Shown here: piece by piece, positions 603-61,221 of the stretch
How the letters are laid out: each line of letters opens with the position of its first letter
Numbering within the stretch: the stretch's first letter is position 1
Assembly: GCA_000091205.1 (NCBI GenBank)
Contig: AP006492.2
Length of the DNA: 64,000 bases
DNA from: Cyanidioschyzon merolae
Lineage: Eukaryota
Reading direction: 5' to 3' (one strand)
Made by a program: the position numbers and the translations under genes
Notes under the pieces: model-generated
Database searches by the model: none
Told to the model about the DNA's origin: nothing
The model's input: the letters and a program-made list of their open reading frames with translations, nothing else

Positions 603-1620
603 AACCGATAGGAGTCGGCTGGTCGCAACAGGCCGGAAGGCGCCAATTCGTGAGCGTATATTTACCCTCCATGGTCGTAGAACGTTTTCCGTTTCACTGA
701 CGATCGATAGGGAGCTCGTACATGCACACAGCAATGCTTGGGACTCCTCCACCTGCCATTAGAACCGAACGACATAGGTTGCTCTGCAACTGCTTCCTTT
801 TCCTCTCTGTTACCCTCGATATGAAATACGCTCAAAAATCATGGACTAAGAGCGCCGTGGCGAGCAGTCCAAGCATGTTGATTGCAGCGTCCAGGTCGCG
901 CTTCTGTGCTCAATCAGGATCTGCGCTATTCATGTCATCCACGGGAGGTACGTGCGATCGCCACCTCACTTGCAGGTTTCATCTTCTTTGTCCACAGCTT
1001 CGGTATGCTGCTTACGACGATGACACCTGCGCGCGGTCGGATGTGCCCGTATTCATATGTATATACATCGGAGATCCCCCGACTTCGACCGCCAGCCTTT
1101 GGCGCGAAAACGCGTGCTGCATCGCTCCGCAAACGCCTGTGACGGGTACCGAAGGCTCCGGTTGATGCCTCCTCGTGCGTTCCTTGCGGCCGGTGTCGCA
1201 CGCCTCCATCAAGCGCTTGTCTGGGGCGATCCGCTCGGCGAGTACGCCGTCCGCTGGACGTGTAGGCGTACGCCGTCGCATTCGAGAGCGCCTCACAAAA
1301 GGCGATGTCGTGCCCGATGGACGGTGCGCACGAGTTGCACAGAAACAGCGATACAGAAAACAAGAAGCATGCGTGATTCGACCATGCCACACACGAGGCA
1401 GAGGAAAAGCCTCGAGACTCTTTTCTACGAACTGAATAATGATACCAGTTGTTTTTGGAACCATCGTTCGAGGGCGTCACGAATCACCCTGACGCGGTTG
1501 ACGGTACGAATTCCAGCGGCAAAGCGTCGATTGCGTCACTCCGAAACCACAATCCGGAATCCTGGAACTGCACATGGATCCGTGAGCCCTTATTGCATCC
1601 ATTTTGGACATCGAGGCTGT
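347..1620 (+). repeat. Dispersed repeat family 'A', copy 1 (about 1.27 kb). Its 5' part overlaps the Fanzor C-terminal fragment. The 3' about 830 bp (787-1620) is shared with copies 2 and 3.
   Basis: Near-identical to 31350..32706 and, from position 787 onward, to 4486..5400. This is visible in the duplicated ORF translations, e.g. ORF 722..1165 vs ORF 4438..4866 vs ORF 31729..32172 with only a few amino-acid differences. No recognisable protein in any frame. Confidence 0.8.
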
Positions 1621-2449
1621 ATATTTATGAAAACTTGCGGAAAAGAAATCGTGATGCAGATACAGAGCGAGTCGTTCAGTGTTCCATTTTAATCTTTGTT
1701 TTCCTTTCGACCATGGAGCCTCGTGCGCACCCAGCGGCACGCGCGTTGATGACGCCGGATCGATTCACTGTATCAGGGCCTCGTGGAAAAGCGAGCGCTA
1801 CCCGAAAACAAGTGAGGGATCTCGTCCGCTCAAGAGGTGCTACCAGTTTCGACTAATCCAAAAAAGGCACTGCTGCAACAGTCGAGGCTTTATCCAGCGA
1901 ATCTCCGGGTGCCGATCCGACCGTAATGCTTCGTGTCAGTCCAAAGCAGCCAATCAGGATCCTCCGGAGGCGATTCCACTTTCCACGAGCCCTCGGCCAA
2001 CGACCTCATCGAGGTAAGGAGTCTGGTCGATCGAGCGCCATGAGTCGTCCTCTATGGGCCGAGTATACAGCAGACGCTTCCTGAGACGCTGGATGCCCGC
2101 CACTGCCGCTGCCGCTGCCGCTGCCGCAATGGTCGTGGTCGTGGTCTACGTTCTGAGAGACAGCGGCCTTGCGACGCCCCGCGCACGTCGGCTTGAAGCG
2201 CAACAATGCCTGGCACGAAGCAAGGAACGCTCTTGGGTCCCGGCTCTAACACCAGCTTGCGTAGCCAAGCCTGCCGACGGTGCGGAACAACCCGCTGGAG
2301 GAACTCGGCAAACCGAAGCCAGCTCGCCGGCTCGGCGCTCCCGTCAGGTTCGTGCAAGTGTGCGCTCCGTGGCAGCCGCGTCCATCGTATAGCGCTCCTG
2401 CATTGCAACAGCGCCCGGAACGTGGTTTTCTGAGACGCACACCATAGGC

Positions 2450-2790
2450 CCGCGCGCACATGCGATGTGCATGCGGATCGCGCGCCTCTGGGCAGCAGCA
2501 TTGCAGCAGCGGTCAGAGCGTGATCCAGTGGTATATTCTGGCAGCGCGCGCACATGCGATGTGCATGCGGATCGCGCGCCTCTGGGCAGCAGCATTGCAG
2601 CAGCGGTCAGAGCGTGATCCAGTGGTATATTCTGGCAGCGCGCGCACATGCGATGTGCATGCGGATCGCGCGCCTCTGGGCAGCAGCATTGCAGCAGCGG
2701 TCAGAGCGTGATTCCATGACACTCACCACAGATGCGCGTACAGCCGATGTGCATGCGGATCGCGCGCCTCCGTGCAACGTGTACGTTCAT
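2450..2790. repeat. Tandem repeat, 94-bp unit x about 3.3, upstream of GAPDH.
   Basis: cacatgcgat recurs at 2457, 2551 and 2645 (period 94). The unit is gcgcgcacatgcgatgtgcatgcggatcgcgcgcctctgggcagcagcattgcagcagcggtcagagcgtgatccagtggtatattctggca. ORFs 2460..2711 and 2554..2850 share an identical N-terminal 53 aa because of the repeat. Confidence 0.85.
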
Positions 2791-3018
2791 CGCTTTCGCG
2801 TATCGAGGAGGCGCCTTGGCAGTGCGCTGCCCGATGCGCCCACGAGGTGATGCAGTACCTCCACAGCTGATACGGCCCGCGTTGGTGATGCGGACGACGC
2901 ACCCTGCTCACAACGAGCCGCCGATACAACTCCGTCAATTGCATTGGTGTTGCTCACGAGCGAAATCAGTGCTTTCTTGCACGTTTTGCGCCCATCGGTA
3001 GAAACGTTCGTTTAGTAG

Positions 3019-4059
<1,041 letters not shown>

Positions 4060-4444: not shown

Positions 4445-5400
4445 TGTTTCCACCGTCACAAGCACCAGTTCTTGCTGGTATTTTCTGCAACTGCTTCCTT
4501 TTCCTCTCTGTTACCCTCGATATGAAATACGCTCAAAAATCATGGACTAAGAGCGCCGTGGCGAGCAGTCCAAGCACGTTGATTGCAGCGTCCAGGTCGC
4601 GCTTCTGTGCTCAATCAGGATCTGCGCTATTCATGTCATCCACGGGAGGTACGTGCGATCGCCACCTCACTTGCAGGTTTCATCTTCTTTGTCCACAGCT
4701 TCGGTATGCTGCTTACGACGATGACACCTGCGCGCGGTCGGATGTGCCCGTATTCATATGTATATACATCGGAGATCCCCCGACTTCGACCGCCAGCCTT
4801 TGGCGCGAAAACGCGTGCTGCATCGCTCCGCAAACGCCTGTGACGGGTACCGAAGGCTCCGGTTGATGCCTCCTCGTGCGTTCCTTGCGGCCGGTGTCGC
4901 ACGCCTCCATCAAGCGCTTGTCTGGGGCGATCCGCTCGGCGAGTACGCCGTCCGCTGGACGTGTAGGCGTACGCCGTCGCATTCGAGAGCGCCTCACAAA
5001 AGGCGATGTCGTGCCCGATGGACGGTGCGCACGAGTTGCACAGAAACAGCGATACAGAAAACAAGAAGCATGCGTGATTCGACCATGCCACACACGAGGC
5101 AGAGGAAAAGCCTCGAGACTCTTTTCTACGAACTGAATAATGATACCAGTTGTTTTTGGAACCATCGTTCGAGGGCGTCACGAATCACCCTGACGCGGTT
5201 GACGGTACGAATTCCAGCGGCAAAGCGTCGATTGCGTCACTCCGAAACCACAATCCGGAATCCTGGAACTGCACATGGATCCGTGAGCCCTTATTGCATC
5301 CATTTGGACATCGATCTGTACATCTAAAGAGCGTTCGGGAAACTAATCGAAAAGCAGGATGCGAGTAAGCAATTCGGTGCTCCATCTTCATATGAAGCGA
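4445..5400 (+). repeat. Dispersed repeat family 'A', copy 2 (5'-truncated relative to copies 1 and 3).
   Basis: 4486..5300 is near-identical to 787..1612 and 31795..32610. ORF 4438..4866 vs 722..1165 differ at a few residues. The 3' end extends about 90 bp further than copy 1 and is shared with copy 3 up to ...catatgaagcga (5400 / 32706). Confidence 0.8.
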
Positions 5401-9083: not shown

Positions 9084-9904
9084 TGCGACACAGCAGGCTT
9101 CCAGACTCTGTATCTTGTCCACGGAGCGTTGACAGCGCCCAGCGTTTCCGTGTGTGTGTGTGTGCGCGCGCGCTGTGATGCACGGCGCACCAGGTCAGCG
9201 CCAGCAGCATGAAAGGCGGTGCGCTGCGCAAATTACCGGCTTCGAAGCCGCCTACAGGTACCCGTAAACCGCTCTCCCGTGTGCTGTTGCACGGATGGTA
9301 GGCGCGCTGGCACAGGCGCTGAACTTCCCTGCACAACATCCCGCAAACCTGATGCGTATTCGAGTCCAGCTCTTTTGCGCCCAGCCGTCATTCGTATATT
9401 CCGAGTAAATCTGCGCGTTGGAAACCGACGATAGGGCCCACGCACCATCACCAAGCGAAGACCCGGTGCTTAGCATTCGTTCTAGCTACTGAGCTGGTCG
9501 AAGGCATCGTGCCGCGAAAGCATGCCGGCAATCGCAGACTCTCCGTACACAACGCGACGATACCGAGTCCCAATCTTACGCGTCGGTTCAATGACGCGTC
9601 GAAGAGAACCTCACGATGCGACCGCGAAGCGTTGCTATCTCCGGGCTGCATCCGCTCTGGCGCTACAGGCGCTATAGCGGACGCTCATAGCTACTCGATG
9701 CCTGGTGGAACGAACGACATGATCAGAATCTCCGAGGGAACGTATGGGTTACGGGCCTTGACTGAAGATAGAGCAATGGACATATTCCCCGGTGCGGATA
9801 TCAAGCACGCCAATGAGCATCTGGAGTCCGCATAAACACTCTATCAGACGCAATGCGCTCACGCTGGTCAAAATATCATTAGCCGAGCATCAGGCAGTCG
9901 CACG

Positions 9905-19124: not shown

Positions 19125-19650
19125 TGCACCCAGCGGTTCAACCCTTTCGAAGGAGTGTTTTCGATCGTGGTACGATAATGATCGTTCCACTGGGCGAATG
19201 ACTGAAGCGTCCAGCACATGGTGACACCAGGAGCACATGACGGCTTCTCCCCGCAAGTCCGTCTCATTCCGCGAAGGTCCTCACCTAAAGGATAAACAAG
19301 CACATTCATTTCCAAGCGATAAAAAATCCACGTGATGAACTCGGATGCACTCTTCAGAAGATCGACATGGAAAAGTGCCAGCGGAGCGCTTGGGTGATAG
19401 AAAAGTTCGGCAAGCTGACAGCGCAGCAAATGGCGCAGAGGGCACGGGATCCAGTACTCCCTGCACTGGAGCGTTCAAAGAGCGTCAAGAAACGCACAGA
19501 GCTCTTGAACCGGCACCTTCACGCCGCCATCCATATCAGAGGATATGCGGTGCGAGAGACGAGACACGAGCCGCTGACGCTGCCCGATTCTGTTCTGGGG
19601 CAGCGTCCCAGACTCGACGTGAGCCTGGATCAAAACCGAAACCGATAGGA
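19125..19650 (+). pseudogene. Fanzor/TnpB-like relic (C-terminal fragment) just upstream of the mtRNAP gene.
   Basis: ORF 19367..19648 reads MEKCQRSAWVIEKFGKLTAQQMAQRARDP...NRHLHAAIHIRGYAV, against the intact copy's [28 protein letters not shown]...[15 protein letters not shown]. About 70-75% nucleotide similarity to 100-640. Confidence 0.55.
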
Positions 19651-19908
19651 GTCGGCTGGTCCAACGACGCTGGGAGGCATCTGCGCGTTTTCAGACATCT
19701 ATCCAGCCTGAACAGTTGTGGAGCGTTTTTCGTTTTACGAATCGTGCACGCATCCGGAGCGTGTGCGCTGGGCAACAACGAGACTCGCGAGAGCACATAC
19801 GTCACTGGCGTTGTCGGGCTTTCGTCTCACTGGTATCGTCGGTGCTTGTGTCGCGAATTGAGTAATTTGAAGTTGGGGCTACATATCACAGCACACGACT
19901 GGCCATGA

Positions 19909-31099: not shown

Positions 31100-31609
31100 G
31101 TAGGCTTTCAGCGCAACAGAGTGCCGCCACGGTTGCGTGTCATCAAATGCGTTTTCACGGTTTTCAGCAGATGCGTACGAAGCGCATTCATTTGAAGGTA
31201 TCAAAAATCCACGGGGAAGACATGGACATACAAGTAGAGGATCCTGGATGGACGTCATAGCCGACTGCTCGAAAAAAACGAATAAAGCCGTCGTCTCGGT
31301 GACTGTCCAGCGACATAGAGCAGTGACGAAGACGAGAGAGAAGGAGAGTGGAGATAGCCAAGAAAAGGTGTTTTCGCCCGGCAGTACGTTGGCGAGACTC
31401 TAGTCGCACTAAGCGCACGAGTTCTAGGAATCCTTGGAACGGTTCGTGCAAGCAGAGGCAATAAACGCATCGAGTTCGTGAACCGAAACTCCAACGCCGC
31501 CATCCGTATCAGACGAAATGCGGTGCGAAAGACGAGATCCGAATTGCTGATGGCATCCATGTTTCTGGGGCAGCCTTTCAGGCTCGAAGTGTGCCTGGAT
31601 CTGAACTGA
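31100..31609 (+). pseudogene. Fanzor/TnpB-like C-terminal fragment (the older, diverged part of repeat-A copy 3), ending at the TGA at 31607-31609.
   Basis: 31349..31609 is near-identical to 346..602 (EFVNRNSNAAIRIRR frame). 31100..31349 is a diverged homologue of 100..346. The antisense ORF 31255..31653 mirrors 161..646. Confidence 0.55.
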
Positions 31610-32706
31610 AACCGATTGGAGTCGGCTGGTCGCAACAGGCCGGAAGGCGCCAATTCGTGAGCGTATATTTACCCTCCATGGTCGTAGAACGTTTTCCGTT
31701 TCACTGACGATCTATAGGGAGCTCGGACATGCACACAGCAATGCTTGGGACTCCTCCACCTGCCATTAGAACCGAACGACATAGGTTGCTCTGCAACTGC
31801 TTCCTTTTCCTCTCTGTTACCCTCGATATGAAATACGCTCAAAAATCATGGACTAAGAGCGCCGTGGCGAGCAGTCCAAGCACGTTGATTGCAGCGTCCA
31901 GGTCGCGCTTCTGTGCTCAATCAGGATCTGCGCTATTCATGTCATGCACGGGAGGTACGTGCGATCGCCACCTCACTTGCAGGTTTCATCTTCTTTGTCC
32001 ACAGCTTCGGTATGCTGCTTATGACGATGACACCTGCGCGCGGTCGGATGTGCCCGTATTCATATGTATATACATCAGAGATCCCCCGACTTCGACCGCC
32101 AGCCTTTGGCGCGAAAACGCGTGCTGCATCGCTCCGCAAACGCCTGTGACGGGTACCGAAGGCTCCGGTTGATGCCTCCTCGTGCGTTCCTTGCGGCCGG
32201 TGTCGCACGCCTCCATCAAGCGCTTGTCTGGGGCGATCCGCTCGGCGAGTACGCCGTCCGCTGGACGTGTACGCGTACGCCGTCGCATTCGAGAGCGCCT
32301 CACAAAAGGCGATGTCGTGCCCGATGGACGGCGCGCACGAGTTGCACGGAAACAGCGATACGGAAAACAAGAAGCATGCGTGATTCGACCATGCCACACA
32401 CGAGGCAGAGGAAAAGCCTCGAGACTCTTTTCTACGAACTGAATAATGATACCAGTTGTTTTTGGAACCATCGTTCGAGGGCGTCGCGAATCACCCTGAC
32501 GCTGTTGACGGTACGAATTCCAGCGGCAAAGCGTCGATTGCGTCACTCCGAAACCACAATCCGGAATCCTGGAACTGCACATGGATCCGTGAGCCCTTAT
32601 TGCATCCATTTGGACATCGATCTGTACATCTAAAGAGCGTTCGGGAAACTAATCGAAAAGCAAGATGCGAGTAAGCAATTCGGTGCTCCTTCTTCATATG
32701 AAGCGA
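31350..32706 (+). repeat. Dispersed repeat family 'A', copy 3 (full young unit, about 1.36 kb), in the MCM6 upstream region.
   Basis: Near-identical to 347..1620 and 4486..5400. ORFs 31729..32172, 31889..32149, 32064..32633 and 32182..32442 duplicate those of copies 1 and 2. Confidence 0.8.
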
Positions 32707-37153: not shown

Positions 37154-37225
37154 AGGAGGCAGTCGGATTTGAACCAACGACCTATCGGACTGCAGCCGAT
37201 TGCTCTACCACTGAGCTATACCTCC
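37154..37225 (-). tRNA. tRNA-Cys (GCA).
   Basis: The reverse complement of 37155..37225 is GGAGGTATAGCTCAGTGGTAGAGCAATCGGCTGCAGTCCGATAGGTCGTTGGTTCAAATCCGACTGCCTCC. It has a 7-bp acceptor stem, a D-arm AGCTCAGTGGTAGAGC, and an anticodon stem ATCGG/CCGAT with loop CTGCAGT (anticodon GCA). The T-arm is GGTTCAAATCC. Confidence 0.9.
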
Positions 37226-41691: not shown

Positions 41692-43506
41692 AAAAATGTC
41701 CTCAGTTATATCGATTAATGAAACGAGATTATTGTTCAGCAACTGCGTGGGAATACCATGCCTCGCGTGTCTATCCACACCGCTTCGTCCGCTCTAGATT
41801 GCCGAACGTGCCATACCAGTGACCGGCCTCGGGCAGCAATCCAATGCCTTGTCTCTGGGTCACTGGTTCTGCTCATCGAGAGTGCTCAGCGCCTCAGGGC
41901 AGTGCTCAAACCCAGTCCCAGACGAACTGATCGAATGTTCGCTCGACCCACAGCCGCTGGACGCCCCGGGAGCACGGAACATTGCCGGATGCTGATCGAC
42001 AGGTTCATGTCTCGGTACAGAAAAGTGCTTGCGCGCCTGGTTGCTGGTGCAGTTCCAAGGTGGCAAGCCTCTCGCCTTCGATTGCCTCGCCATCTGGCGT
42101 TCGGCCAGCATACCGCACACGGTATCGTGCATCCGACGCTGGTCCCGGCTCGTGTGCTCTACCGGTTTCAGCATGCATATGTTCTAGTCAGGCGCGTACG
42201 TCGTCATGAGGGCGTCAGTGAACGACCTTCGAAATCGATGCCTGCACTCACTTGAAGCGCTCTTCGACGGGGCACTGGAGCAACCGATGTTTGCTGGAGG
42301 ATGTTCATCGCGGTGGGCTACCACTCAACGACGCGACTTGCCGGTCGTTCCCTTTCCACAACCGCTGGACTAGGTGCCGAGTGCAAGACTACCGGCCTCC
42401 GCACAGACGAAACTGCAGGCTATCCGAGCACAGCGCCAGACACATCTGCCGTCGATTGTCTGTACAGGTCAGTCGCACGCTCGTGTGCTCTCTGAATGAC
42501 GCGCATAAACGCATCACCGTCTGCACAGTACAATACGACGCTGAGAGCGTCGCGATGCGCCCTGATGCCGTCATTCCACTTTGTGGTATGTCGCCTGGCG
42601 TCCATGATGCCCGGGCCCCGATGATGCCGCGCTCTGGAAGAATCCTGTCGCGGTGCCGATGGTGTCCCGAGCAGCCGCTGTGCTGCCGCACGAAGGTTTG
42701 ATCGAGAACGTCGAGGCGGGTAAGGACAGCTGGCTGCCGTGCGTACGGAACGCGCTCGAACAGCCGCTCGACGAGATGCGCTCCAGCGAGAGAGACGAGG
42801 GAAGCGCGAGCAAGTCGGCACACACGAAGCTTGAGGCCATCAGCGAATCTTTTCGTTTGGCCGTTGGTAGGCGACTGAACGGCTGCGTCACCACAAGCAC
42901 CGGTACTGCCGCCATTCAAGCTTGTCTCTTGTGTATGAAGTGCAGCTCGCGTCTCTCTGAATGCCGATACAAAGCTGTACCGGTTATTCCGAGAACAGTC
43001 TCATCCAGTGAGACGAAACCCCGTCCCTGCTGGAACCAGTGTTTGTGTTTCATGGGGAAGCTTAGCGAGCGAAGCTTAACGGGCGAGAGCTGCATACGGA
43101 AACATACTTCTTAGTACGAGTTCGTGTCTCTTCATCAATGCTCGTCTCAATAGAGCGGAAACTTCATATCCTGTCGCTTCTTTGACAAAACTGGTCAGCA
43201 AAAGTATGCTATAGAATGCGTTGTCGAGTGAGTGCGCAGCCGTATAGACAGCGTTTGCGAGGATCAGGGTAGGGTGCACGGCATCCGTTGCACGGACGAC
43301 GAGGACAGAGGATTCATCCGCCTACTGAGCGTAGAGTGACCGACTTGGACCAGTAATGTCGTTATCTCGCCAGCTAGCAGCGACAGCACAGAGTCTTTCC
43401 AGGACCGCTTCTCAAACCGAATAACACGTCCCGTTTGCTGAGTACCTGAAAGTAAAATAGTCTCAGATAATGTACTTGAACGTGTGTTCCGGAATTCTCT
43501 GATCTG
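41692..43506. repeat. Left arm of a large inverted repeat (about 1.8 kb), pairing with 48137..49951.
   Basis: ORFs in the two arms are mirror images: 41758..42255(+) vs 49388..49885(-), 42252..42701(+) vs 48942..49391(-), 42653..43114(+) vs 48529..48990(-), and 43076..43279(-) vs 48364..48567(+). Paired coordinates always sum to 91643, so there are no indels. Only a handful of amino-acid differences separate the arms. Confidence 0.9.
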
Positions 43507-45144: not shown

Positions 45145-46821
45145 TCACGACGCTACGACAACTGGTACGGCCTCCGATGTGCAAGCGGTGTCAGTGCCTG
45201 CCCCAGTGCCTGCTCCAGTGCTTGCGTCCGCAACACGCCAACGCGCACGAATAACACTGTCCGCTGGGTATATCGTCGGCAAGTAGATGATCTCGTCGCT
45301 GTGCACGGTGCGCACCCGAGTCCAGTCCACAGTGGTCGCCAGCACCGCCAAATAGCACATCAAATGGTTGATCGCATAGTTCCGCCCGACACACATGTGC
45401 GGACCGCAGCCAAACGTCAGGAAATGCTTCCGGTACTTTTGCTCCTCCTGCCGCGGCGGCAGCATCCGCTCCGGATCGAAGCGTTCAGGTGACGGAAAGC
45501 CCTGCATGCACGCAGTCCAGAGACTCGGCACCACGAGCGCACCTCGCGGCACCTCGTAGCCGTTCGGCAGCTGCACCCGCTTGCTCGCAACCTGCGGAAC
45601 CATCACAGGCGGCGGCCGGAAGCGCAGCACCTCCAGAACGACCGCGCGCGTGTACACCATCTGCTCCAGCAGCTCGTAGGTGATCGGCTCGTCGTGCGGG
45701 CGCAGCCGCTGTTGCTCTTCGCGCACCCGCTGCAGCACGTCGGGTCGCTCGGCCACCAGCACAGTCGTCCATACCAGCGACGCTGTCGACGCATCCTGAG
45801 ACGCAAACAAAAAGTCCAGCATGGCGTCCGCCATCTCGTGGTCCGCGCTGTACTTGGGCGGCGCCCGGTTCTCGCGCTTCGCAGCTGCAACCTCCTCCAG
45901 CACGGACACCGTCCAAAAGTCCAGCAGGCACTGCGGCTCCGCCTCGGCGTCCTTCCGGAAACGCTCCTTCGACGCCCGTACACACGCAGTCAGGTCCCGT
46001 AGTACACGCTCCCGCGCCCGTATCGCACGCCACAGGCCCGTCCCAGGCAGCGCTAACGGGAACGAAAGAAAACCCTGCGTGATCAGCAGATAGTCCGCAC
46101 AGAAGCGCTCCCGATCGCGCAGGTACGGACCCACAAACACCGTCTGCGACGTCCGCAGATTCAGGTCGCGGATGCGCGGGCGCACCTCAAATGCTGCCGC
46201 GGTGCCGTCCGTGCCGCGCCCCGACAGCCACGCCGCCAGGTGCTCGCCAATCAGGCGCTCGTGGATGCTCACGTACATGCCTAGCGCCTTGGGCGTGAAC
46301 AGCCGCAGAAAAGACTGCCGCAGGAGCTTGTGCTCCTCGCCGCTCTTGAAGGCAATATTGTTCCGCCCGAGGATCCGCCAGCCGTTCGGGTGCAGTATCA
46401 TCTCAAACGCGTGCGGGCCGTTCTCGCTGAGCACGTACCGGCTGAGGTCCGTGTCCGTCACGAAAAGCACGAAGAAGCCCGCCAGCGCATTCCAGCTCAG
46501 GCCGCACGGGTTTAAGCGCCGCTGCCGCTCCCAGAACCCGTACGGCGACAGCACCATTTCCACGATGCTCCCGATGAGCGGAATCACAAACCGCGGGCCT
46601 GGGATTCGCCCGTAGCCCGCCCAGCGCCGCAGTCGCACCTGCTCTGCGATCGCGAGGCCGAGCACCAGCAGCGCAACGTACGCCAGCGCACGGCTGGCGG
46701 TACCCCAGCCGGCGATCCCCAGCGCAGCGTCCGCGCGGCGCAGGCAGTGCCGCGCCACCGATACCACCCACTCGGCTGCTGCCACAGGCGTCGAGCGCGT
46801 AAGCGAGGCCGTCTCAATCAT
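45145..46821 (-). CDS. Cytochrome P450, sterol C-22 desaturase-like (CYP710/CYP61 family).
   Basis: 558 aa. N-terminal membrane anchor, PERF-like PERFDPERM, and the haem-binding loop FLTFGCGPHMCVGRNYA. FLFASQDASTASLVWT closely resembles the CYP710/CYP61 I-helix region. There is a C-terminal (AGT)n-encoded Gly/Thr/Ala tail. Confidence 0.7.
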   Translation of the reverse strand: MIETASLTRSTPVAAAEWVVSVARHCLRRADAALGIAGWGTASRALAYVALLVLGLAIAEQVRLRRWAGYGRIPGPRFVIPLIGSIVEMVLSPYGFWERQRRLNPCGLSWNALAGFFVLFVTDTDLSRYVLSENGPHAFEMILHPNGWRILGRNNIAFKSGEEHKLLRQSFLRLFTPKALGMYVSIHERLIGEHLAAWLSGRGTDGTAAAFEVRPRIRDLNLRTSQTVFVGPYLRDRERFCADYLLITQGFLSFPLALPGTGLWRAIRARERVLRDLTACVRASKERFRKDAEAEPQCLLDFWTVSVLEEVAAAKRENRAPPKYSADHEMADAMLDFLFASQDASTASLVWTTVLVAERPDVLQRVREEQQRLRPHDEPITYELLEQMVYTRAVVLEVLRFRPPPVMVPQVASKRVQLPNGYEVPRGALVVPSLWTACMQGFPSPERFDPERMLPPRQEEQKYRKHFLTFGCGPHMCVGRNYAINHLMCYLAVLATTVDWTRVRTVHSDEIIYLPTIYPADSVIRARWRVADASTGAGTGAGTDTACTSEAVPVVVAS

Positions 46822-48136: not shown

Positions 48137-49951
48137 CAGATCAGAGAATTCCGGAACACACGTTCAAGTACATTATCTGAGACTATTTTACTTTCAGGTA
48201 CTCAGCAAACGGGACGTGTTATTCGGTTTGAGAAGCGGTCCTGGAAAGACTCTGTGCTGTCGCTGCTAGCTGGCGAGATAACGACATTACTGGTCCAAGT
48301 CGGTCACTCTACGCTCAGTAGGCGGATGAATCCTCTGTCCTCGTCGTCCGTGCAACGGATGCCGTGCACCCTACCCTGATCCTCGCAAACGCTGTCTATA
48401 CGGCTGCGCACTCACTCGACAACGCATTCTATAGCATACTTTTGCTGACCAGTTTTGTCAAAGAAGCGACAGGATATGAAGTTTCCGCTCTATTGAGACG
48501 AGCATTGATGAAGAGACACGAACTCGTACTAAGAAGTATGTTTCCGTATGCAGCTCTCGCCCGTTAAGCTTCGCTCGCTAAGCTTCCCCATGAAACACAA
48601 ACACCGGTTCCAGCAGGGACGGGGTTTCGTCTCACTGGATGAGACTGTTCTCGGAATAACCGGTACAGCTTTGTATCGGCATTCAGAGAGACGCGAGCTG
48701 CACTTCATACACAAGAGACAAGCTTGAATGGCGGCAGTACCGGTGCTTGTGGTGACGCAGCCGTTCAGTCGCCTACCAACGGCCAAACGAAAAGATTCGC
48801 TGATGGCCTCAAGCTTCGTGTGTGCCGACTTGCTCGCGCTTCCCTCGTCTCCCTCGCTGGGGCGCATCTCGTCGAGCGGCTGTTCGAGCGCGTTCCGTAC
48901 GCACGGCGGCCAGCTGTCCTTACCCGCCTCGACGTTCTCGATCAAACCTTCGTGCGGCAGCACAACGGCTGCTCGGGACACCATCGGCACCGCGACAGGA
49001 TTCTTCCAGAGCGCGGCATCATCGGGGCCCGGGCATCATGGACGCCAGGCGACATACCACAAAGTGGAATGACGGCATCAGGGCGCATCGCGACGCTCTC
49101 AGCGTCGTATTGTACTGTGCAGACGGTGATGCGTTTATGCGCGTTATTCAGAGAGCACACGAGCGTGCGACTGGCCTGTACAGACGATCGACGGCAGATG
49201 TGTCTGGCGCTGTGCTCGGATAGCCTGCAGTTTCGTCTGTGCGGAGGCCGGTAGTCTTGCACTCGGCACCTAGTCAAGCGGTTGTGGAAAGGGAATGACC
49301 GGCAAGTCGCGTCGTTGAGTGGTAGCCCACCGCGATGAACATCCTCCAGCAAACATCGGTTGCTCCAGTGCCCCGTCGAAGCGCGCCTCAAGTGAGTGCA
49401 GGCATCGATTTCGAAGGTCGTTCACTGACGCCCTCATGACGACGTACGCGCCTGACTAGAACATATGCATGCTGAAACCGGTAGAGCACACGAGCCGGGA
49501 CCAGCGTCGGATGCACGATACCGTGTGCGGTATGCTGGCCGAACGCCAGATGGCGAGGCAATCGAAGGCGAGAGGCTTGCCACCTTGGAACTGCACCAGC
49601 AACCAGGCGCGCAAGCACTTTTCTGTACCGAGACATGAACCTGTCGATCAGCATCCGGCAATGTTCCGTGCTCCCGGGGCGTCCAGCGGCTGTGGGTCGA
49701 GCGAACGTTCGATCAGTTCGTCTGGGACTGGGTTTGAGCACTGCCCTGAGGCGCTGAGCACTCTCGATGAGCAGAACCAGTGACCCAGAGACAAGGCATT
49801 GGATTGCTGCCCGAGGCCGGTCACTGGTATGGCACGTTCGGCAATCTAGAGCGGACGAAGCGGCGTGGATAGATACGCGCGGCATGGTATTCCCACGCAG
49901 TTGCTGAACAATAATCTCGTTTCATTAATCGATATATCTACGGATATCGCG
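48137..49951. repeat. Right arm of the large inverted repeat (pairs with 41692..43506).
   Basis: See the left arm. The inner boundary diverges right after ...ggaattctctgatctg (43506 / 48137). The outer boundary lies near tatatcgattaatgaaacg (41692 / 49951). Confidence 0.9.
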
Positions 49952-53855: not shown

Positions 53856-54908
53856 TTACGACTTGTCGATCCGAACGCCGTTCGAAATTCGAACGACGCC
53901 AGCAGTACAGTAGTGGCGAGAAGCCCGACCTAGACTAGTCGTCATTAACCAATGTGCAGACGTCCTCGTCTTTTTCGACCGGCCCCCGCTACTGCTCCCT
54001 TTTTTCTCATATAGTTCCACTTTGAGAGATTGTCCAGCAAAGTTCGCGCTTGTCCAATCTGGTGGTCTCTCCTCCAGCACCGCACATCTCCTTATATTGA
54101 TGGCGGCGTTAGAGTCACGATTCACAAACTCCATCCGTTTCTTGCCATCACTGGTTGCACTTACTAATGCAAAGAGTCCACGAACTTTCGCCCTCCTTTC
54201 CATTTGCTCTTCTGTTAGCAGTCCGTACTTTGCTATATCCTCAGGGCTCCTCTGGCACTTTTCCATCTCGACTCTCTGAAGTGTACAACCCAGCTCGTGG
54301 TGTGTGTAGGACGTTCGGAACTCATCTACAGGTATCGTGACGAAACGCCTTGTGCACTCCTTGTACAACCTTGTCGTTGGAGCTGGTGTACACCCTTTTT
54401 GAATCTTCCATCGCCCTGCTGCGTACGCTACTACGAGCCTTTGAGTCTTGTCCTCTTTGAGGGCACTCAACTGATTGAAAAAGTTGGCGAACGCCTGCTG
54501 CTTACCACAATACAGATTCATTCGCAAACGAGCCCATCGGGGCTTTGTATACTCCTCCCAGAGTGCATCCCAATGGGCAACGCGAACTTCCATAAATTTC
54601 CGAAAAGCTTCAAAGTCCGCACCTCGGCTCGTCATCTCGCCCAAAGCTTCCAGGTGATCCTTCATTCCTGAATTCCAAGTCTCGATTTTCTTCCTCGCAT
54701 TCATTATACCGGATTCTCGATAGTATCTTGCTCTCGAGAACCTCATCAGACGCATGTCTTTCTGACGTAAGTTACCATCAGCGCCATCTTCTGCACGCTT
54801 CGGTGCTGCGATGGTTGTGATATTCGTATTCCCAGGGTCCGCGCCACCGACAAAGTCGTTATCTTGCACTTTCTCGGTCACAGGACCCGCCCTCCTTCTT
54901 TTCTTCAT
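53856..54908 (-). CDS. Fanzor (eukaryotic TnpB-like RNA-guided-endonuclease family) protein, C-terminal RuvC-containing half, with an intact 350-aa ORF.
   Basis: RuvC-I-like [14 protein letters not shown] (aa 21-34). The Fanzor/TnpB TS motif is [16 protein letters not shown] (aa 193-208, nt 54285-54332), preceded by [15 protein letters not shown]. The RuvC-III motif is RDSNAAINI (aa 264-272, nt 54093-54119). No canonical RuvC-II Glu is found in the usual xVVED position, which may fit the relocated catalytic Glu described for the Fanzor1 type, as recalled from the literature rather than seen in the sequence. GC is about 50% against about 60% for host genes. Confidence 0.7.
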
Positions 54909-56124
54909 GCTTCACCGCGTCAATGGCAAGGTAGTCATCCTGCACCACCGGCGTCGCAGGATCCGCCTCCTTCTCATCTTCATCCTTCGCCGCGCCGACG
55001 ATAAGGTCGTTATCCTCCACCTCCTGCATCACAGAATCCTCCTCTTTGTTTTCTGCATCCCTCGTGACGGGCGCGGCCGAGGGCGGATCTGGACGATCTT
55101 TCTTCAACCGCCGATAGAGTACACACGTGGCTACTCCATCGGTTTCGATCAACCCAGCAAATACCTTTTGTTTGCTGACTTTGAGACGTTTGAAGTCGAA
55201 GATACTCTTCCAGTACGTCTCCCGGTTTTCACCGATGAAGTCCTCCCTGCTCACATCGAACTCCGGACAGATCTCCCTCATGATGCCGTAAAGGACGCCT
55301 GAATCGATAGTCACGAAATGTGACTTGATATTGCACATTGGAACGCCGTTGAAGCGCTTACCCATTAGGAAAGCCTTCCGTCTCTCCCACTCTTGATTTG
55401 TCTCTTCACTCAGCTTCATCTCCGCTTCGCGTTCGAGCTCTCGGTCCAGAAACACGAAATATCACAGGATGAGGCGGTAGTATCTTTCCTTATCTTTTTT
55501 CAACTCTGATCAATTTTCTGCCAAATTCGCCAGCCCCAGGACTGCACGATACTCTTGGATAGCCGCACGGATTACAGAAGCTTCATTTGCGCTCCTGCGT
55601 GACGCCTTCTTATCGACAAACTCGATCTCAACTTCATACTTGCGATCTTTCATGATGCCATTGATAATCGCCCATTTTCCGTTGCGAGCGATGCCCGGGT
55701 AGAGTGTACCCACCGCGCGTATCATAAAACGTTCGAGGTTCACTGTCAAATGGTTCTTCAGACTCGTGGTGTACTTTTTCGCTCCGTATGCCTAAATATC
55801 CGAGGCACCCCTGTATCGATTACCTTCGAAGCGGAATTCCACCAAGTTTTCGTGGAGGGCGTGCACTAGCACATTTTCCTTCAGCGCTTCCGCTGTGCCA
55901 AGCATCAGGTGACGAATAAACGTCTTGTCGAAAAACTCGTCAGGAATCTCGACTGTTTCCGTGTGCGTCACGTCGCGATACATCTCCCTCACCAAATGCA
56001 TCAGTACTGACGACGCCTTGACAATACTCTTGGAGTACGAGTCGACATGGTTTCTGATAGCGTCTCGCAACTTTTCGTTGCACGGATCCTTGATATGTTT
56101 AAGAAGGAAGGTTTTCACCACCAT
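54859..56124 (-). pseudogene. Putative N-terminal half of the same Fanzor gene. It is one reading frame broken by in-frame stops (TAG 55792-55794, TGA 55510-55512, TGA 55462-55464) and joined to the RuvC half by a frameshift within a 3x about 75-bp imperfect tandem repeat.
   Basis: ORFs 55792..56124, 55510..55749 and 54859..55455 all share minus-strand frame 0. The C-terminal ORF 53856..54908 is in frame 2 and overlaps by 50 nt. The repeats encode [11 protein letters not shown] / [11 protein letters not shown] / [12 protein letters not shown] basic NLS-like ORF (KKNKKQCRVQKKRERRR) lies at 56099..56281. No convincing intron signals flank the stops, so recent pseudogenisation is more likely than splicing. 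Confidence 0.45.
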
Positions 56125-57362
56125 CTCGTCGTAAAGTCGTCTTTGTTGCAGCCTTCAACGTAGGGCCTCCCCTTTCGGTTCTTCTTCTCTCCCTTTTCTT
56201 CTGGACTCGGCACTGTTTTTTGTTTTTTTTTCTGGCAGCCGGCGACCCTGGGCCTCCAGGATCGTGGACTTGCTTTTTCATAGCTTTCCTTTTTTAGTTT
56301 TTTTTTGAAAAACAACGCTCTGTGAACGCTTCTGTTATATACTGCGAAAAAAAACTTGAACACACTTGTTTGAGGTTTGAAAGAAAAATGAACTAAAAAA
56401 CTGTACTCTGCTAAGACCTTAACGGAAATCCAATTTTTCCAGTAGAACAACACGCTACTGATCAGGATCGCGTTTCCCTTCAACGGCGGCATTCGCATCG
56501 TGTCAGTAGACTGGCCGATCTCCGAGGTATCTCGGCGTCGATCTGGTCGTGGTGAGCAAAACGCCGGGTACAAAAACACCGATAACAAAACAAACTAGTC
56601 GCAAACTATTTATTAAAGAACAACTATCTTAAAGACCCACACACCACGCCCGCCTTAGAGGTCTAGTTTTTCCGGAGAAGCTCTGAAAGTGGGTTAACGC
56701 GGGGTGCTTGGGCGACGGCGAAGGAAGCCCACGCCAGGGACCTTGACCGCAACGAACGGAGGGGCGGCGGCAGTAGCACCAGAAAATGTTGACGAAAATC
56801 CTGATTAGTCATCCGCCCCTCCCGAATCAACGCTGCAGGTTCGGGCGCAAATCTTGGATCGATCCTCGGACTCGGGCTCCGTTTTACCTCCTACCTTGGC
56901 TACCTACCTCAACTTTGGGAACAATTTCGGCGGATACTTTGGAAGACGGCTGGCAGTATGTTCACTGTCGAAGCTGGAATAAGCGGCTTGCCCGCCTATG
57001 TGTTTGGGGAGCGGATACGTAGCCGCTGAAAGGGTGGTTTGCAGACTGTTCCCAATTGTTGAGGGGAGGTTAAAGCGTCGGGCAAGATAAAGGTCGCATT
57101 CGAATCGACCTTGACTAGCGTACATCTGATTCTACGCTAGCGCTGCGGCAGACGCTCAATGAACGACTGGAATGCAGGAGGCGCTGGTGGCATGTGCGAT
57201 CACACACGCCATGGAGGGTGCATCTCAATCGACAACGTATCTCTCGAGTACCGCAGCGTTAATCCTATTCCCTTATGCGCTACGACTCGATAGGTTTCGC
57301 ATCATGGAATATTTGTGGGATCGCCTCGGTATTGAACTACGAGATATCGAATTACCAGTACA

Positions 57363-60300
57363 GTAATGAAGAACTGATACAAGTCGAGGACTGTACAAAA
57401 GGCAAAAGAGACCCAACCAGACACGGAGAAGGAGACACAGAAACCTCATGATCCACCTAGATGCAAAATAACCAGAGAATGTAGCTCAGGAAAGAACCCG
57501 ATGAAGAAGAAAACCAACAAGAGAAAAACAGAAGAATAGGAAGAAGAACTCCCGAACGAGTCCACAGGCGGGGGCTCCAGCGAACCCATCACAAGTCGTC
57601 CCCGAAAGAGCACCCCAGCAGGAACTCAAGAAAGCCGTCGCCAAACCGAGTCACCTACTCACAGCGCTGAAGATCCGAAAAGCCGTGCATACAAATCTTT
57701 AGACCAATTGGCACGCGAGTTTGTAGATGGGAATCAGAAGTTGCCGGAGAGCTGGGACTGCTTGCACCAGAACGCAACAGTTGCAAACCTCAGTGCCTGA
57801 AACGACGTACCAATACCCGGATTGACGAGCGCCACCGACTCTATCAGATCGTCAACCACACCGCCATACGCGCCAACGCTGGAGACAAGGAAGCGAAGGC
57901 AGTCCTAACGGCGCTACAGGCACAACATGAAGAAGCTATCAAAAGAAAGAAGAAACTTTCCAGAGAAGACAAACGAGAGGATCGAAACCGCAAAATCGCC
58001 TCCCTAGCGAAATCTATGCTAGAGAGCACCAACGAAGATGAGACCTGGCGCTACATTCGATCGAGACTGGACCCACCAAAAAAGTGCTTGGGGCTCACAC
58101 CAATCGTTTATGAGGAAGTGCTGAGGACGGAGCGTGCCTCAGTGAATGAGGCCTGGACGGACCACGGCACAGAGCTGCATGAAGACGCAACTGGGAACTG
58201 CCAAGACAGAATCTATTGGCACCAGTATGCCGCAGAACTACCGCGCCTCGAACCGGTACCGGAATGGAACGACCCAATCTTCTGGCCTGAATCTGTTCGG
58301 ACCGTGCTATGCTCAAGCAACCGCAAAACACCTGGCATCGACGGTATCGCGGCGGAGTGGATGAAACTGGTGATCCCAAAAGACGGGACAAGAGGGACAC
58401 TATCGATACCAGATGAACCTGACACAAGCTTAGGCAAACGCCTTGTGGAGCTCATCCAACGCATGTTCGAAGAGGCGTACATCCCGGATTTATGGAGGAC
58501 TGCCGAGGTCGTACCGATCCTCAAAAAGGACTCCGACGTACACAAACACAGACATGAACAACTACCGGACTATTCGCCTCATCCCGTCAATCATGAAGCT
58601 ACTTTGCGCCATTCCCACGAACCGGACTCAGAGAGGCCTCGTGGAACGCAAGTTCTTCGCCCCAGAACAGGCTGGATTCCGGAGCCACGAGGAGTGCATG
58701 AGCCATGCCCTGACCCTAACTGAAGTGGTGCAACGTCGCTCCATTAGCGGCCAACAACCAGCTTACGTATGCTTCACCGACTTTCAAAAGGCCTTTGACA
58801 CGGTCCCGCACGAGGCTCCATTTCTCAAGATGGAACGAGCCCAAGTCTCCGGAAAGTGCTTAGCGTTCTTCCGTGCGCTCTATGCAGACTCATGGATGCG
58901 CATCCGACTGGGCGACCGCTCAAGAACCCCTTCCAGAAGAATCCGCCGTGGACTGCGGCAGGGCGAGCGCGCATCCCCGCTCCTTTTCAACATCTTCATC
59001 AACGATCTGCTGAACAACTGCAGACAATACGGGCTTGAGGTGCCGTGGATAGACTGTGGAGATACCCGATGAGGAGCTCTCACATAGGAACCGCCTCGCA
59101 GGCCGTCTAGTTGCGGACGATGTCGTGCTGTTGGCACCCGCCCCGGAAACGCTTGCGGGTAGCATGGAACAAGTCAGCGCCCGGGCCGATCGCTGGGAGA
59201 TGAGCATAGGAGCATCGAAGTGCGGCGTCATGGTCATCCATGGAGACTCGCAGAGCATTCGCAATCGCTCGTGGCGGTTGCAGAATCAGGAAATTCCGAT
59301 CGTGGAAAAATATCGCTACCCGGGGGTCTGTCTAACGCCGACGCTCGACGAAGAGGCACACGTCGACGAGATGATCGCCAAGATGCATAGACGTACAGCG
59401 ATCGCACGTCCATTCCCATCCGACCCCTCTATCTGCATAGCAATTCGTACCAGGGCACGAAGGATGTGTATCATCCAGCCTGCGACCTGGGGTGCTGAGT
59501 GGTGCGGCATGAACCACACAAATGCCTCACGTCTGCAGATAGCCGCCAACATGGCAATGCGACTCGTTGTTGCTGTTGGATGCTCAATGTAGAGCAGAGC
59601 AACCACCGCGCTGGCACTCGGACTTGAACTCCAAATAGCCTCGACAGAGGCGACAGCAGCAGGTTGCCGGGCACGCATATGGGGCAAAGGGCCAACTATG
59701 AACACCTGGTTCGATCGGATATCCATGCAGACCCCAACGCACCGCAAGAACACTTGGATGAAATCGACGCAGATTTGGCTGAAGCGCCTCTTAGGGGACA
59801 ACACGCTCCCCAATCGTTCCCCAGGAATGTAGAAGACTTCAGACGCCTCAAGCGAACGGTCCAAACAACAATTTGGGAACGTAGACACGGAACCAGTCGC
59901 GCCAGTAACGCCGGCTTAACTCTATACCGGAACTACAACCTAGCATACACATGCAAGTACTGGTGGGAGGCGCTGGAATTCCCGGGACTTGCTCGAGGTA
60001 CCCAGTGGCTCGCCAAAATCCGCGTTGATGGCTTCTGGCTAGCGGCACCGGCTCTAAACCATATAGGGACACTGGAATCGCACTGGGAGTCACACTGTCC
60101 CTGCTATCGAGACGAAATCCCCGAGACGCTGACATATTTAGGCTTACAGTGCCCGCGCTGGAAGCAGGAGCGCAGCGAGCTCCTTGAAGGACAGCAGCAG
60201 CTGGGCATCACCATGATAGCCGAGGGCCGGACATTCACTTTGAGTGCAGCACTGGCAACTGATGGTCCGCTAACAGATCCTCAGTGCTCATTAGTGGCCA

Positions 60301-60830
60301 ACAAACTCACATGCTACGTTCTAGGCATGAGGTCCAGCGTATCGGATGCGCACACGGGCCCAGTGCGCTTTCTGCGCCCACCTTTTGTGGTGGGTGTCAA
60401 GCACAAATCCGCATTTCCAACCGACGACAACGCATTCCATGCATGATCACGAAGGAGAGAGGCGGCTCCCACGATATATCCTAACAGTCAAGTTTCTCCA
60501 GCGTGTCGTGCAGCGAAGGCAAGCCTGCATCCGCAGACTGTCCGAGCACAAACTGACGACGAGACTCGATTCTACGTCGGGTGAAGCACACCTCGAGCCG
60601 ACGCCCTTTGTGGTATAGAAAAGCCGTTCTGTCTCCATGATGCATCTGTACCAAAGGTAAAGACGCTATTGCGGATAATTAGGACAGGTTCTGGGCACAC
60701 GATAGGACGTATGAGATGACCAGAATATCTGAGACGAAGTATAGGTAATGGAACTTGGGAGTAGCCTGTTTGATGGATACTTCACGGCGCACTGAAAAAA
60801 AGAGAAAAAAGTAAGAAAAGAAAAATGCGC
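57363..60830 (+). mobile_element. Degenerate, 5'-truncated non-LTR (LINE) retrotransposon.
   Basis: Reverse-transcriptase motifs are spread over frameshifted ORFs. ORF 58016..58723 carries motif 0 (PGIDGIAAEWMKL...WRTAEVVPILKK). ORF 58443..59072 carries motif 1 NYRTIRLIPSIMKLL, motif 2 FQKAFDTVPH and motifs 3-4 RGLRQGERASPLLFNIFIND. ORF 59056..59592 carries motif 5 LVADDVVLLA. ORF 59664..60446 carries the C-terminal Cys-His knuckle HCPCYRDEIPETLTYLGLQCPRWKQER. An A-rich tail lies at about 60795-60828. No endonuclease domain is seen upstream. Confidence 0.8.
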
Positions 60831-60924
60831 GTGATCGGAGAACGCTGGCCTAAGTAAACGTTTTGTCAACGAAAAAACAAATACCGCCCCAGCAGCGCCT
60901 GGGCGGACAAGCGGCCGCGATCCG

Positions 60925-61143
60925 GCGCAATCGCCGGAAAGCTCTGCGCCGCTGCAATCGCCGGAAAGCTCTGCGCCGCTGCAATCGCCGGAAAGCTCTG
61001 CGCCGCTGCAATCGCCGGAACGCTCTGCGCCGCTGCAATCGCCGGAACGCTCTGCGCCGCTGCAATCGCCGGAAAGCTCTGCGCCGCTGCAATCGCCGGA
61101 AAGCTCTGCGCCGCTGCAATCGCCGGAAAGCTCTGCGCCGCTG
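60925..61143. repeat. Minisatellite, 27-bp unit (caatcgccggaaagctctgcgccgctg) x about 8.
   Basis: Direct tandem copies with an A/C variant (ggaaag/ggaacg). Located about 80 bp upstream of the ClpS-like ORF. Confidence 0.9.
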
Positions 61144-61221
61144 CAGGCGCGCCGGCCAGAGCGCTCTCCATAGATCCGTAACTCTTATTTTGCGTGTGCA
61201 GAGGCTAGAGCGGTACGCTGG

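Follow-up and report, generated by a model that had tools for sequence, protein, structure and literature searches.

We have analysed a 64,000-nucleotide stretch of chromosome 10 of the unicellular red alga Cyanidioschyzon merolae 10D (contig AP006492.2; the whole stretch is referred to below as the window), in which one copy of the Fanzor1 unit of the repeat family CMe-1A lies on the minus strand at 53874..56581. CMe-1A is the single Fanzor1 family listed for C. merolae by Bao and Jurka in 2013 (Mobile DNA 4:12; PMC3627910), who reported ~150 copies, each ~80% identical to the consensus, an absence of terminal inverted repeats (TIRs), target site duplications (TSDs) that could not be determined and a classification given as unknown. 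The supplement to that paper presents a consensus of 3169 bp with a 734-aa open reading frame (ORF), the 5' 635 bp of the consensus being another repeat, TE-N2_CMe. In blastn searches of the window, consensus positions 687-2196 align with 56504-54990 and positions 2117-3145 with 54919-53897, at 85.2% and 87.4% identity, respectively, reaching the identity level of the family. The two matches overlap in the consensus because the window copy contains one extra 75-bp acidic repeat. At the protein level, tblastn aligned CMe-1 residues 19-430 and 409-727 with the window at 74.6% and 83.7% identity, respectively. With its ends set against 86 related loci, the copy extends from consensus position ~640/687 to 3169, its 5' end being uncertain by ~50 nt. 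Blastn with the consensus finds the TE-N2_CMe head (consensus 1-686) to be absent at the window locus, and the head is present in only approximately one quarter of the related loci. We conclude that the locus is, with high probability, an old, inactivated insertion of CMe-1A, the sole Fanzor1-bearing transposable element family of C. merolae; the presence of a Fanzor in this genome is not new, being already known from the 2013 publication (PMC3627910).

The C-terminal, RuvC half of the Fanzor1 protein is carried by a 350-aa ORF at 53856..54908 on the minus strand, which corresponds to CMe-1 residues 409-727 and in which GADPG, VDEFRTS and a RuvC-III motif occur in the order described in an earlier, sequence-only reading of this DNA. 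Residue conservation was counted in an alignment of 75 sequences spanning the wider clade (alignment A4). The RuvC-I catalytic Asp, D24 (54837..54839), lies in GADPG, the Fanzor 'DPG' signature, and is kept in 72 of the 75 sequences. The canonical RuvC-II Glu position (54420..54422) is occupied by Ala in the window (AYAAG) and by Gly in 70/75 relatives (AYGAG/AYGSA). A relocated catalytic Glu (Ealt), E196 in VDEFRTS (54321..54323), is situated 33 residues downstream of this position, is kept in 74/75 relatives and aligns, in a HMMER alignment, with the E of 'LLDEYKTSSVCPRC' in SpuFz1, the Fanzor1 of Spizellomyces punctatus. The RuvC-III catalytic Asp, D265 (54114..54116), is kept in 71/75 relatives, within a family consensus of RDFNAAINI (RDxNAAxN across the clade) that reads RDSNAA in the window. 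This arrangement agrees with the literature on Fanzors. Pro or Gly takes the place of the canonical RuvC-II Glu, and a Glu further downstream compensates for it (PMC10530073); the DPG signature has been reported, with Ealt defined as the E located six residues ahead of the first CxxC (PMC10711439); and the triad of ApmFz2 is D324/E467/D501 (PMC11832414). Judged from the alignment, D24, the relocated Glu E196 and D265 are the Fanzor-type triad. The sequence-only reading had noted the missing canonical RuvC-II Glu and suggested a Fanzor1-type relocation; this was right, and the relocated residue proves to be E196, within the DEFRTS motif that had been flagged. The motif D-X(125,275)-[TS][TS]-...-RD of Bao and Jurka (2013) is present as D24, 174 residues, T199-S200 and R264-D265, as are the features by which Fanzor is separated from TnpB, namely DPG at RuvC-I, replacement of the canonical Glu and an alternative Glu before the TS motif. 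Residues after ~302 of the 350-aa ORF, approximately the last 45 aa, are an out-of-frame tail, and the true family C-terminus is read in the frame of a small ORF at 53945..54085.

Assignment of the protein was investigated using sequence profiles and structure models. The close family contains 267 proteins at 66-98% identity, and a profile of the family RuvC half detected 1179 relatives among 1.84 billion representative proteins, many of them 600-740 aa in length and matched in their C-terminal half. A deeper profile (A3), built from the family member P0039 and 49 distant full-length relatives, matched three solved Fanzor1 chains in the PDB, those from Parasitella parasitica (9cf0, E=1.5e-18), Spizellomyces punctatus (8gkh, E=1.1e-10) and Guillardia theta (9cer, E=6.7e-5); in this search no other nuclease family was matched and no Fanzor2 chain appeared at E<=1. 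An AlphaFold2 model of the window RuvC half (292 aa) was obtained with a predicted local distance difference test (pLDDT) score of 90.3 and a predicted template modelling (TM) score of 0.84, and its best Foldseek matches were SpuFz (E=2.7e-10, TM 0.64), PpFz and GtFz, followed by Cas12o, Cas12f and Cas12b. Over its whole length, the model of P0039 (593 aa, pLDDT 82.5) aligned with SpuFz1 in State 1 across 603 columns (TM 0.59/0.58, E=4.6e-13), and TnpB (8h1j) was also among the fold matches of this full-length model. Fanzor2 was not found in the top 50 fold matches of either model.

Several results weigh against this assignment. Pfam scans of five window ORFs and six longer relatives returned nothing significant, the match of the window ORF to PF07282 (Cas12f1-like_TNB) being non-significant at E=0.78. 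Neither the profile of the close family alone nor a single distant relative matched any PDB sequence. The C4 zinc finger (CxxC...CxxC), which belongs to the original TnpB/Fanzor motif and would be placed after TS and ahead of RD, is missing in the window ORF, which has only HHELGC...C in this region, and no conserved Cys pairs were found across the 75-sequence clade, including metagenome proteins of 600-740 aa from unknown hosts. A precomputed weak tag, PF26935/DUF8286, was uninformative. As the close-family profile finds nothing in the PDB, sequence-level homology needs the wider clade as a bridge; PF07282 is below the cut-off but correctly placed in three of ten distant relatives scanned (5.6e-5 to 4e-3), and the D-Ealt-D triad is retained by the clade in alignment A4 despite the missing zinc ribbon. 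If the motifs were a chance resemblance and the ORF no homologue of TnpB or Fanzor, the lack of a significant TnpB match in Pfam and with the shallow family profile would be as observed, but a match of the deeper profile to three solved Fanzor1s, two independent structure models that give Fanzor1 first and Cas12/TnpB next, and a direct match to the published Fanzor1 consensus would not, and these results refute this explanation, to which we assign practically no probability. TnpB similarity and a RuvC fold, the lack of which had been set beforehand as grounds for abandoning the identification, were both found, as the A3 profile and both models give Fanzor1. The sequence-only reading had called a Fanzor1-type TnpB homologue of ~730-aa design; profile-to-PDB matches, fold matches and the 85-87% match to the CMe-1A consensus bear this out, and on profile and modelling evidence the CMe-1 protein is strongly supported as a Fanzor1-type TnpB homologue.

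The half of the protein that precedes RuvC is also recognizable. In the ~600-800-aa Fanzor1 design a REC/WED half lies ahead of RuvC, and the window holds the homologous 1.2 kb, in broken form, at 54990..56232 (minus strand; CMe-1 residues 19-430). Three upstream ORFs (54859..55455, 55510..55749 and 55792..56124) do share one frame, as had been reported, but this frame contains four in-frame stops rather than two. The two halves are joined by an acidic repeat of approximately three tandem 75-bp (25-aa) units (..KHEEKKEADPATQEVEDNDFVV..) at 54839..55064 (minus strand), which forms a linker before RuvC-I, comprises between 1 and ~6 units depending on the family member (alignment A1) and is predicted to be disordered (pLDDT <50 in the family model). 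A degenerate basic N-terminus, the nuclear localization signal (NLS)-like region of the family, is located at 56099..56300 (minus strand), where it is split over three frames with loss of the consensus ATG. The NLS-like segment 'KKRERRR' of the sequence-only reading is largely an out-of-frame reading of this region; the real N-terminus of the family is nevertheless basic too, that of consensus CMe-1 reading GKKRKT...KTKKQKREARRQR, and N-terminal NLSs are common in Fanzors (PMC10530073).

The window copy is a pseudogene, unable to make the nuclease, and the description of the gene as near-complete does not hold in the coding sense, since the start codon is lost and the reading frame is interrupted by four stops and shifted at least four times. 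Compared with the consensus ORF, in-frame stops occur at 56155-56157, 55792-55794, 55510-55512 and 55462-55464, each standing in place of a conserved sense codon (Y to TAG, V to TGA, R to TGA). Two frame changes are observed at ~56150-56225, with loss of the consensus ATG. A +1 frameshift, caused by an extra G in GGAGGGCGGG (54884..54892, minus strand), separates the N-terminal and RuvC halves; the 350-aa ORF is thus in a different frame from the upstream ORFs. A further frameshift at ~54000, in the C-terminal frameshift region at 53945..54005 (minus strand), replaces the true C-terminus (..GRSKKxGRRLHV..), which is read in another frame together with its stop at 53945-53947. An orthologue of the copy, found in a metagenome strain from a hot spring (L007/L001), is likewise flanked by the phosphoglucomutase (PGM) gene and is 98.2% identical to the window copy; L007 2400-3914 corresponds to window 53874-55455. 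In L007, which lacks the +1 G, the linker and RuvC half are consequently joined in a single ORF of 505 aa, and the stop immediately upstream of this ORF is shared with the window copy. Most indel differences between L007 and the window are in homopolymer runs, including those in the basic N-terminus.

The total length and domain order of the copy are those of a full Fanzor1 and some Fanzor genes have introns (PMC10530073), as an intact, active gene would require if its stops and frameshifts were intronic or bypassed by readthrough or frameshifting. The stops, however, lie at conserved sense codons, in sequence colinear with the intron-less 734-aa consensus ORF, and at least four separate frameshifts would also need rescue. 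Introns number only a few dozen in C. merolae, which also counts against an intact gene. Thus introns or readthrough do not rescue the ORF, and we regard this explanation as extremely improbable. A domesticated or still-expressed truncated protein, consisting of the 350-aa RuvC ORF with a function of its own, would account for a RuvC half that is open over 350 codons with D24, E196 and D265 intact, and for an open frame across the same region in the 98%-identical metagenome orthologue. Such a protein would be missing the REC/WED half, which Fanzor1 needs for RNA and DNA binding; it would start at an ATG created by the frameshift in the acidic linker and would end in ~45 residues read out of frame, and conserved positions are substituted (AYGAG to AYAAG, RDFNAA to RDSNAA). 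The exact protein is not among the annotated or predicted proteins in the collection searched, and the orthologue, at 98% identity, is too similar for selection to be revealed. A domesticated RuvC protein is, in our judgement, very unlikely, and the window copy probably makes nothing functional.

Loss of coding capacity is not confined to this copy. Metagenome contigs contained at least 290 relatives, and 80 loci were retrieved; the close relatives are all from JGI/ENA metagenomes that carry Cyanidioschyzon-type host genes. A full ORF was not found among 86 related loci, the longest being 623 aa; Bao and Jurka (PMC3627910) claim that some 10D copies are intact. Mean pairwise identity of 52 non-redundant RuvC regions is 84%, corresponding to ~16% divergence, and identity between the window copy and other full-length copies is ~82%. 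The CMe-1A family is old and its present copies are relics. The family had been described as expanded and recently active; it is indeed expanded, but the ~16% divergence and the absence of a full ORF in the 86 loci do not support recent activity. Past selection is evident in the RuvC half, in which diversity is 0.247 at third codon positions versus 0.129 and 0.103 at positions 1-2, an excess of 2-2.5-fold. The excess is 1.2-1.7-fold in the N-terminal half and is gone in the last ~140 nt of the ORF. This shows that the protein was under purifying selection while the family diversified, as was likewise argued for the Fanzor protein by Bao and Jurka (PMC3627910).

The unit differs from its surroundings in base composition, with a GC content of 0.492 as compared to 0.562 in the window and 0.557 in the adjoining PGM gene, and a third-codon-position GC of 0.52 versus 0.58-0.62 in host genes. 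A low-GC island is therefore real, as had been noted, but the contrast is 49 versus 56-57% rather than 50 versus 60%. The island around the Fanzor unit is a nest of repeats. A search for TIRs revealed no inverted repeat linking the two ends of the window element.

At the 3' end of the element, homology among copies ends sharply at 53874, per-15-nt conservation dropping from 0.92 to 0.36. The terminus is formed by a hairpin, CGTCGTTCGA-ATT-TCGAACGGCG followed by TT (53874..53898, minus strand), which is conserved among copies with a variable loop (CGTCGTTCGA-NNN-TCGAACGGCG) and may represent either the final stem of an omega RNA or a signal marking the DNA end. The candidate omega-RNA scaffold region, 53874..54060 (minus strand), overlaps the ORF end; with the consensus stop only ~60 nt upstream of the terminus, an omega RNA would necessarily share sequence with the last part of the coding region, as is the case for TnpB. 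The 3' region of the consensus has a 9-bp long-range helix (CAGTAGTGG/CCACTACTG), the last ~185 nt fold better than shuffled sequences (z=-2.9 in the window and -2.1 in the consensus), and a few hairpin variants look compensatory, changing G-C to U-A at two positions. Two comparisons of 27 copies gave no significant covariation for the 3' helices: RNAalifold gave -13.3 kcal/mol with a covariation term of ~0, and pair counting found 88.7% of cells paired versus 88.2% in shuffles. We infer a putative omega RNA at the 3' end of the element from the behaviour of the family. Rfam, at gathering thresholds, matched no known RNA family at this end. In some related loci TTTGTTTCCAGGGG is observed downstream of the element, and it is absent from the window.

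By analogy with characterized relatives, an intact CMe-1A would encode a ~734-aa Fanzor1 in which an NLS-like basic N-terminus is followed by the REC/WED half, the acidic repeat linker and finally the RuvC half. Import would rely on the basic N-terminus. The protein would associate with an omega RNA made from the 3'-terminal region of the element, whose guide portion would correspond to the flanking sequence directly beyond the terminal hairpin. Guide-matched DNA beside a target-adjacent motif would then be cut by D-Ealt-D in a single RuvC site. From homology with SpuFz1, PpFz1 and GtFz1, we infer that intact CMe-1 would be an RNA-guided double-strand DNA endonuclease.

The Fanzor unit adjoins, in head-to-head orientation, a decayed reverse-transcriptase (RT) retroelement at 56577..60880 on the plus strand; this retroelement is context and not part of the Fanzor gene. 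It contains an RVT_1 domain (E=7.8e-17 at 58443-59072) and an A-rich 3' end, ..GTAAACGTTTTGTCAACGAAAAAACAAATA. Just past this end, a tandem array at 60927-61145 consists of 8.1 near-perfect copies of a 27-bp unit (GCAATCGCCGGAAAGCTCTGCGCCGCT). The reverse complement of CMe-1A consensus nt 1-26 matches the retroelement 3' end at 60846-60871 and that of nt 85-271 matches window 60576-60764; a TE-N2_CMe-like piece is also present at window 9624-9760, and a T-run precedes consensus position 1 in seven loci. From the tail matches and T-runs, TE-N2_CMe, unclassified in 2013, appears to have its 3' tail in common with the retroelement and to be a non-autonomous, A-tailed relative of it, placed in antisense orientation relative to the Fanzor gene.

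Four classes of Fanzor 5' boundary were drawn from related loci L003-L086: fusion to the retroelement 5' end, as in the window; fusion to TE-N2_CMe, as in the published consensus; fusion to the 3' tail of the retroelement, which is variably 5'-truncated; and an own terminus of ~70 nt with the palindrome GGACACGTGTCC. The junction of the window recurs in L004/L077, L013, L047 and L052. Approximately two-thirds of the classifiable related 5' junctions examined are fused to the retroelement or TE-N2_CMe, either head-to-head or tail-to-head, and 5'-truncated Fanzor copies with constant 3' ends are common. Neither a transposase nor TIRs are present in the CMe-1 unit, and TSDs are not detectable. 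These observations could be accommodated if the unit spread through an RNA intermediate, borrowing the RT of the adjoining poly(A)-tailed retroelement, a mode of spread that we consider possible but unlikely. Twin priming or template switching would give head-to-head and tail-to-head fusions such as those observed, the CMe-1A consensus as published would then combine two separate retro-copies, and a statistical LINE (long interspersed nuclear element) association has been described for clade Fanzor1c (Jiang et al.). The same junctions could result from an insertion preference of the retroelement or from assembly artefacts in mixed-strain metagenomes. If RT-mediated spread were true, a zinc-finger-less Fanzor1 lineage from a thermoacidophile would have been multiplying as a retroposon.

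In 'A-type' loci, homology extends at least 2 kb upstream, taking in a host-like short-chain dehydrogenase gene, and its other limit coincides precisely with the 3' end of the Fanzor unit. This upstream stretch of at least 2 kb is common to several Fanzor loci at ~81% identity, with differing downstream flanks, and in L064 it contains a 359-aa short-chain dehydrogenase ORF (990-2069, minus strand) which is protochlorophyllide-reductase-like by eye. A larger mobile unit, a segmental duplication, diverged metagenome strains or assembly chimeras could each produce this pattern.

Elsewhere in the window, a second, more divergent Fanzor-like repeat is represented by fragments at 14-641, 19133-19678 and 31176-31648 (plus strand), with weaker protein-level matches at 48945-49615 (plus strand) and 42492-42698 (minus strand). 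Near RuvC-III this repeat is 69-76% identical to CMe-1 in nucleotide sequence and 32-48% in amino-acid sequence. Divergent Fanzor-like fragments are included in a ~1-kb dispersed repeat, of which the copies at 175-1200 and 31176-32207 are 92.9% identical, and in a 418-bp segment that is 99.8% identical between 783-1200 and 4484-4901. Six long ORFs of the window exactly match annotated 10D proteins, including phosphoglucomutase (BAM80374), MCM6 (BAM80367) and CYP710 (BAM80373). CYP710, a sterol 22-desaturase (45145-46821, minus strand), has a same-chromosome paralogue, BAM80381, at >=90% identity, which suggests a local segmental duplication. A tRNA gene at 37154-37225 (minus strand) is the only Rfam match in the window at gathering thresholds.

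The locus is therefore a documented repeat that was correctly recognized and not a new kind of system. Fanzor biochemistry was established in 2023-24. Three side observations are of minor value. The whole CMe-1 clade lacks a zinc ribbon thought to be universal in TnpB and Fanzor, and its triad was kept under past purifying selection; the TE-N2_CMe head, apparently a retroelement derivative, bears on how a transposase-less Fanzor element moves. In addition, C. merolae is a thermoacidophile, growing at ~42-45°C, and a resurrected consensus CMe-1 could for that reason be a heat-tolerant compact nuclease.

With respect to the published CMe-1A consensus, the window copy is from the same genome and family, encodes the same protein and has the same 3' terminus, both being without TIRs. 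It differs in lacking the 5' 686 bp, in the additional 75-bp repeat, in its four stops and at least four frameshifts, and in adjoining the 5' end of a full-length-type RT retroelement rather than TE-N2_CMe. The best structural match of both the window RuvC half and P0039 is SpuFz1 (PDB 8GKH, 9CEU-9CEZ), with which CMe-1 has in common the DPG Asp, Ealt in DE[YF]xTS and the RD Asp. Sequence identity between the two is only 14-18%, SpuFz1 keeps a CxxC...C zinc ribbon that the CMe-1 clade is without, and the omega RNA and activity of SpuFz1 have been shown by experiment whereas CMe-1 is known here from sequence and models. PpFz (PDB 9CF0-9CF3) is the top sequence-profile match, in an alignment that also spans the REC region and the C-terminal RD motif; in structure alignments both PpFz and the Guillardia theta Fanzor1 (9CER-9CET) are distant, at 10-14% identity to CMe-1. 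Prokaryotic TnpB (ISDra2, PDB 8H1J) and Cas12f have a RuvC fold and D-E-D chemistry as in CMe-1, and the CMe-1A element resembles the IS200/IS605 architecture in having no TIRs and a subterminal 3' hairpin. In TnpB, however, the Glu occupies the canonical RuvC-II site, the motif is D-hydrophobic-G, and both a zinc ribbon and a TnpA partner are present, whereas CMe-1 has a relocated Glu, DPG, no zinc ribbon and no transposase in its element. Finally, Fanzor2 (ApmFz2, PDB 9B0L) has a rearranged catalytic Glu, as does CMe-1, from which it is distinguished by the size and N-terminal architecture of CMe-1, both of which are Fanzor1-like.

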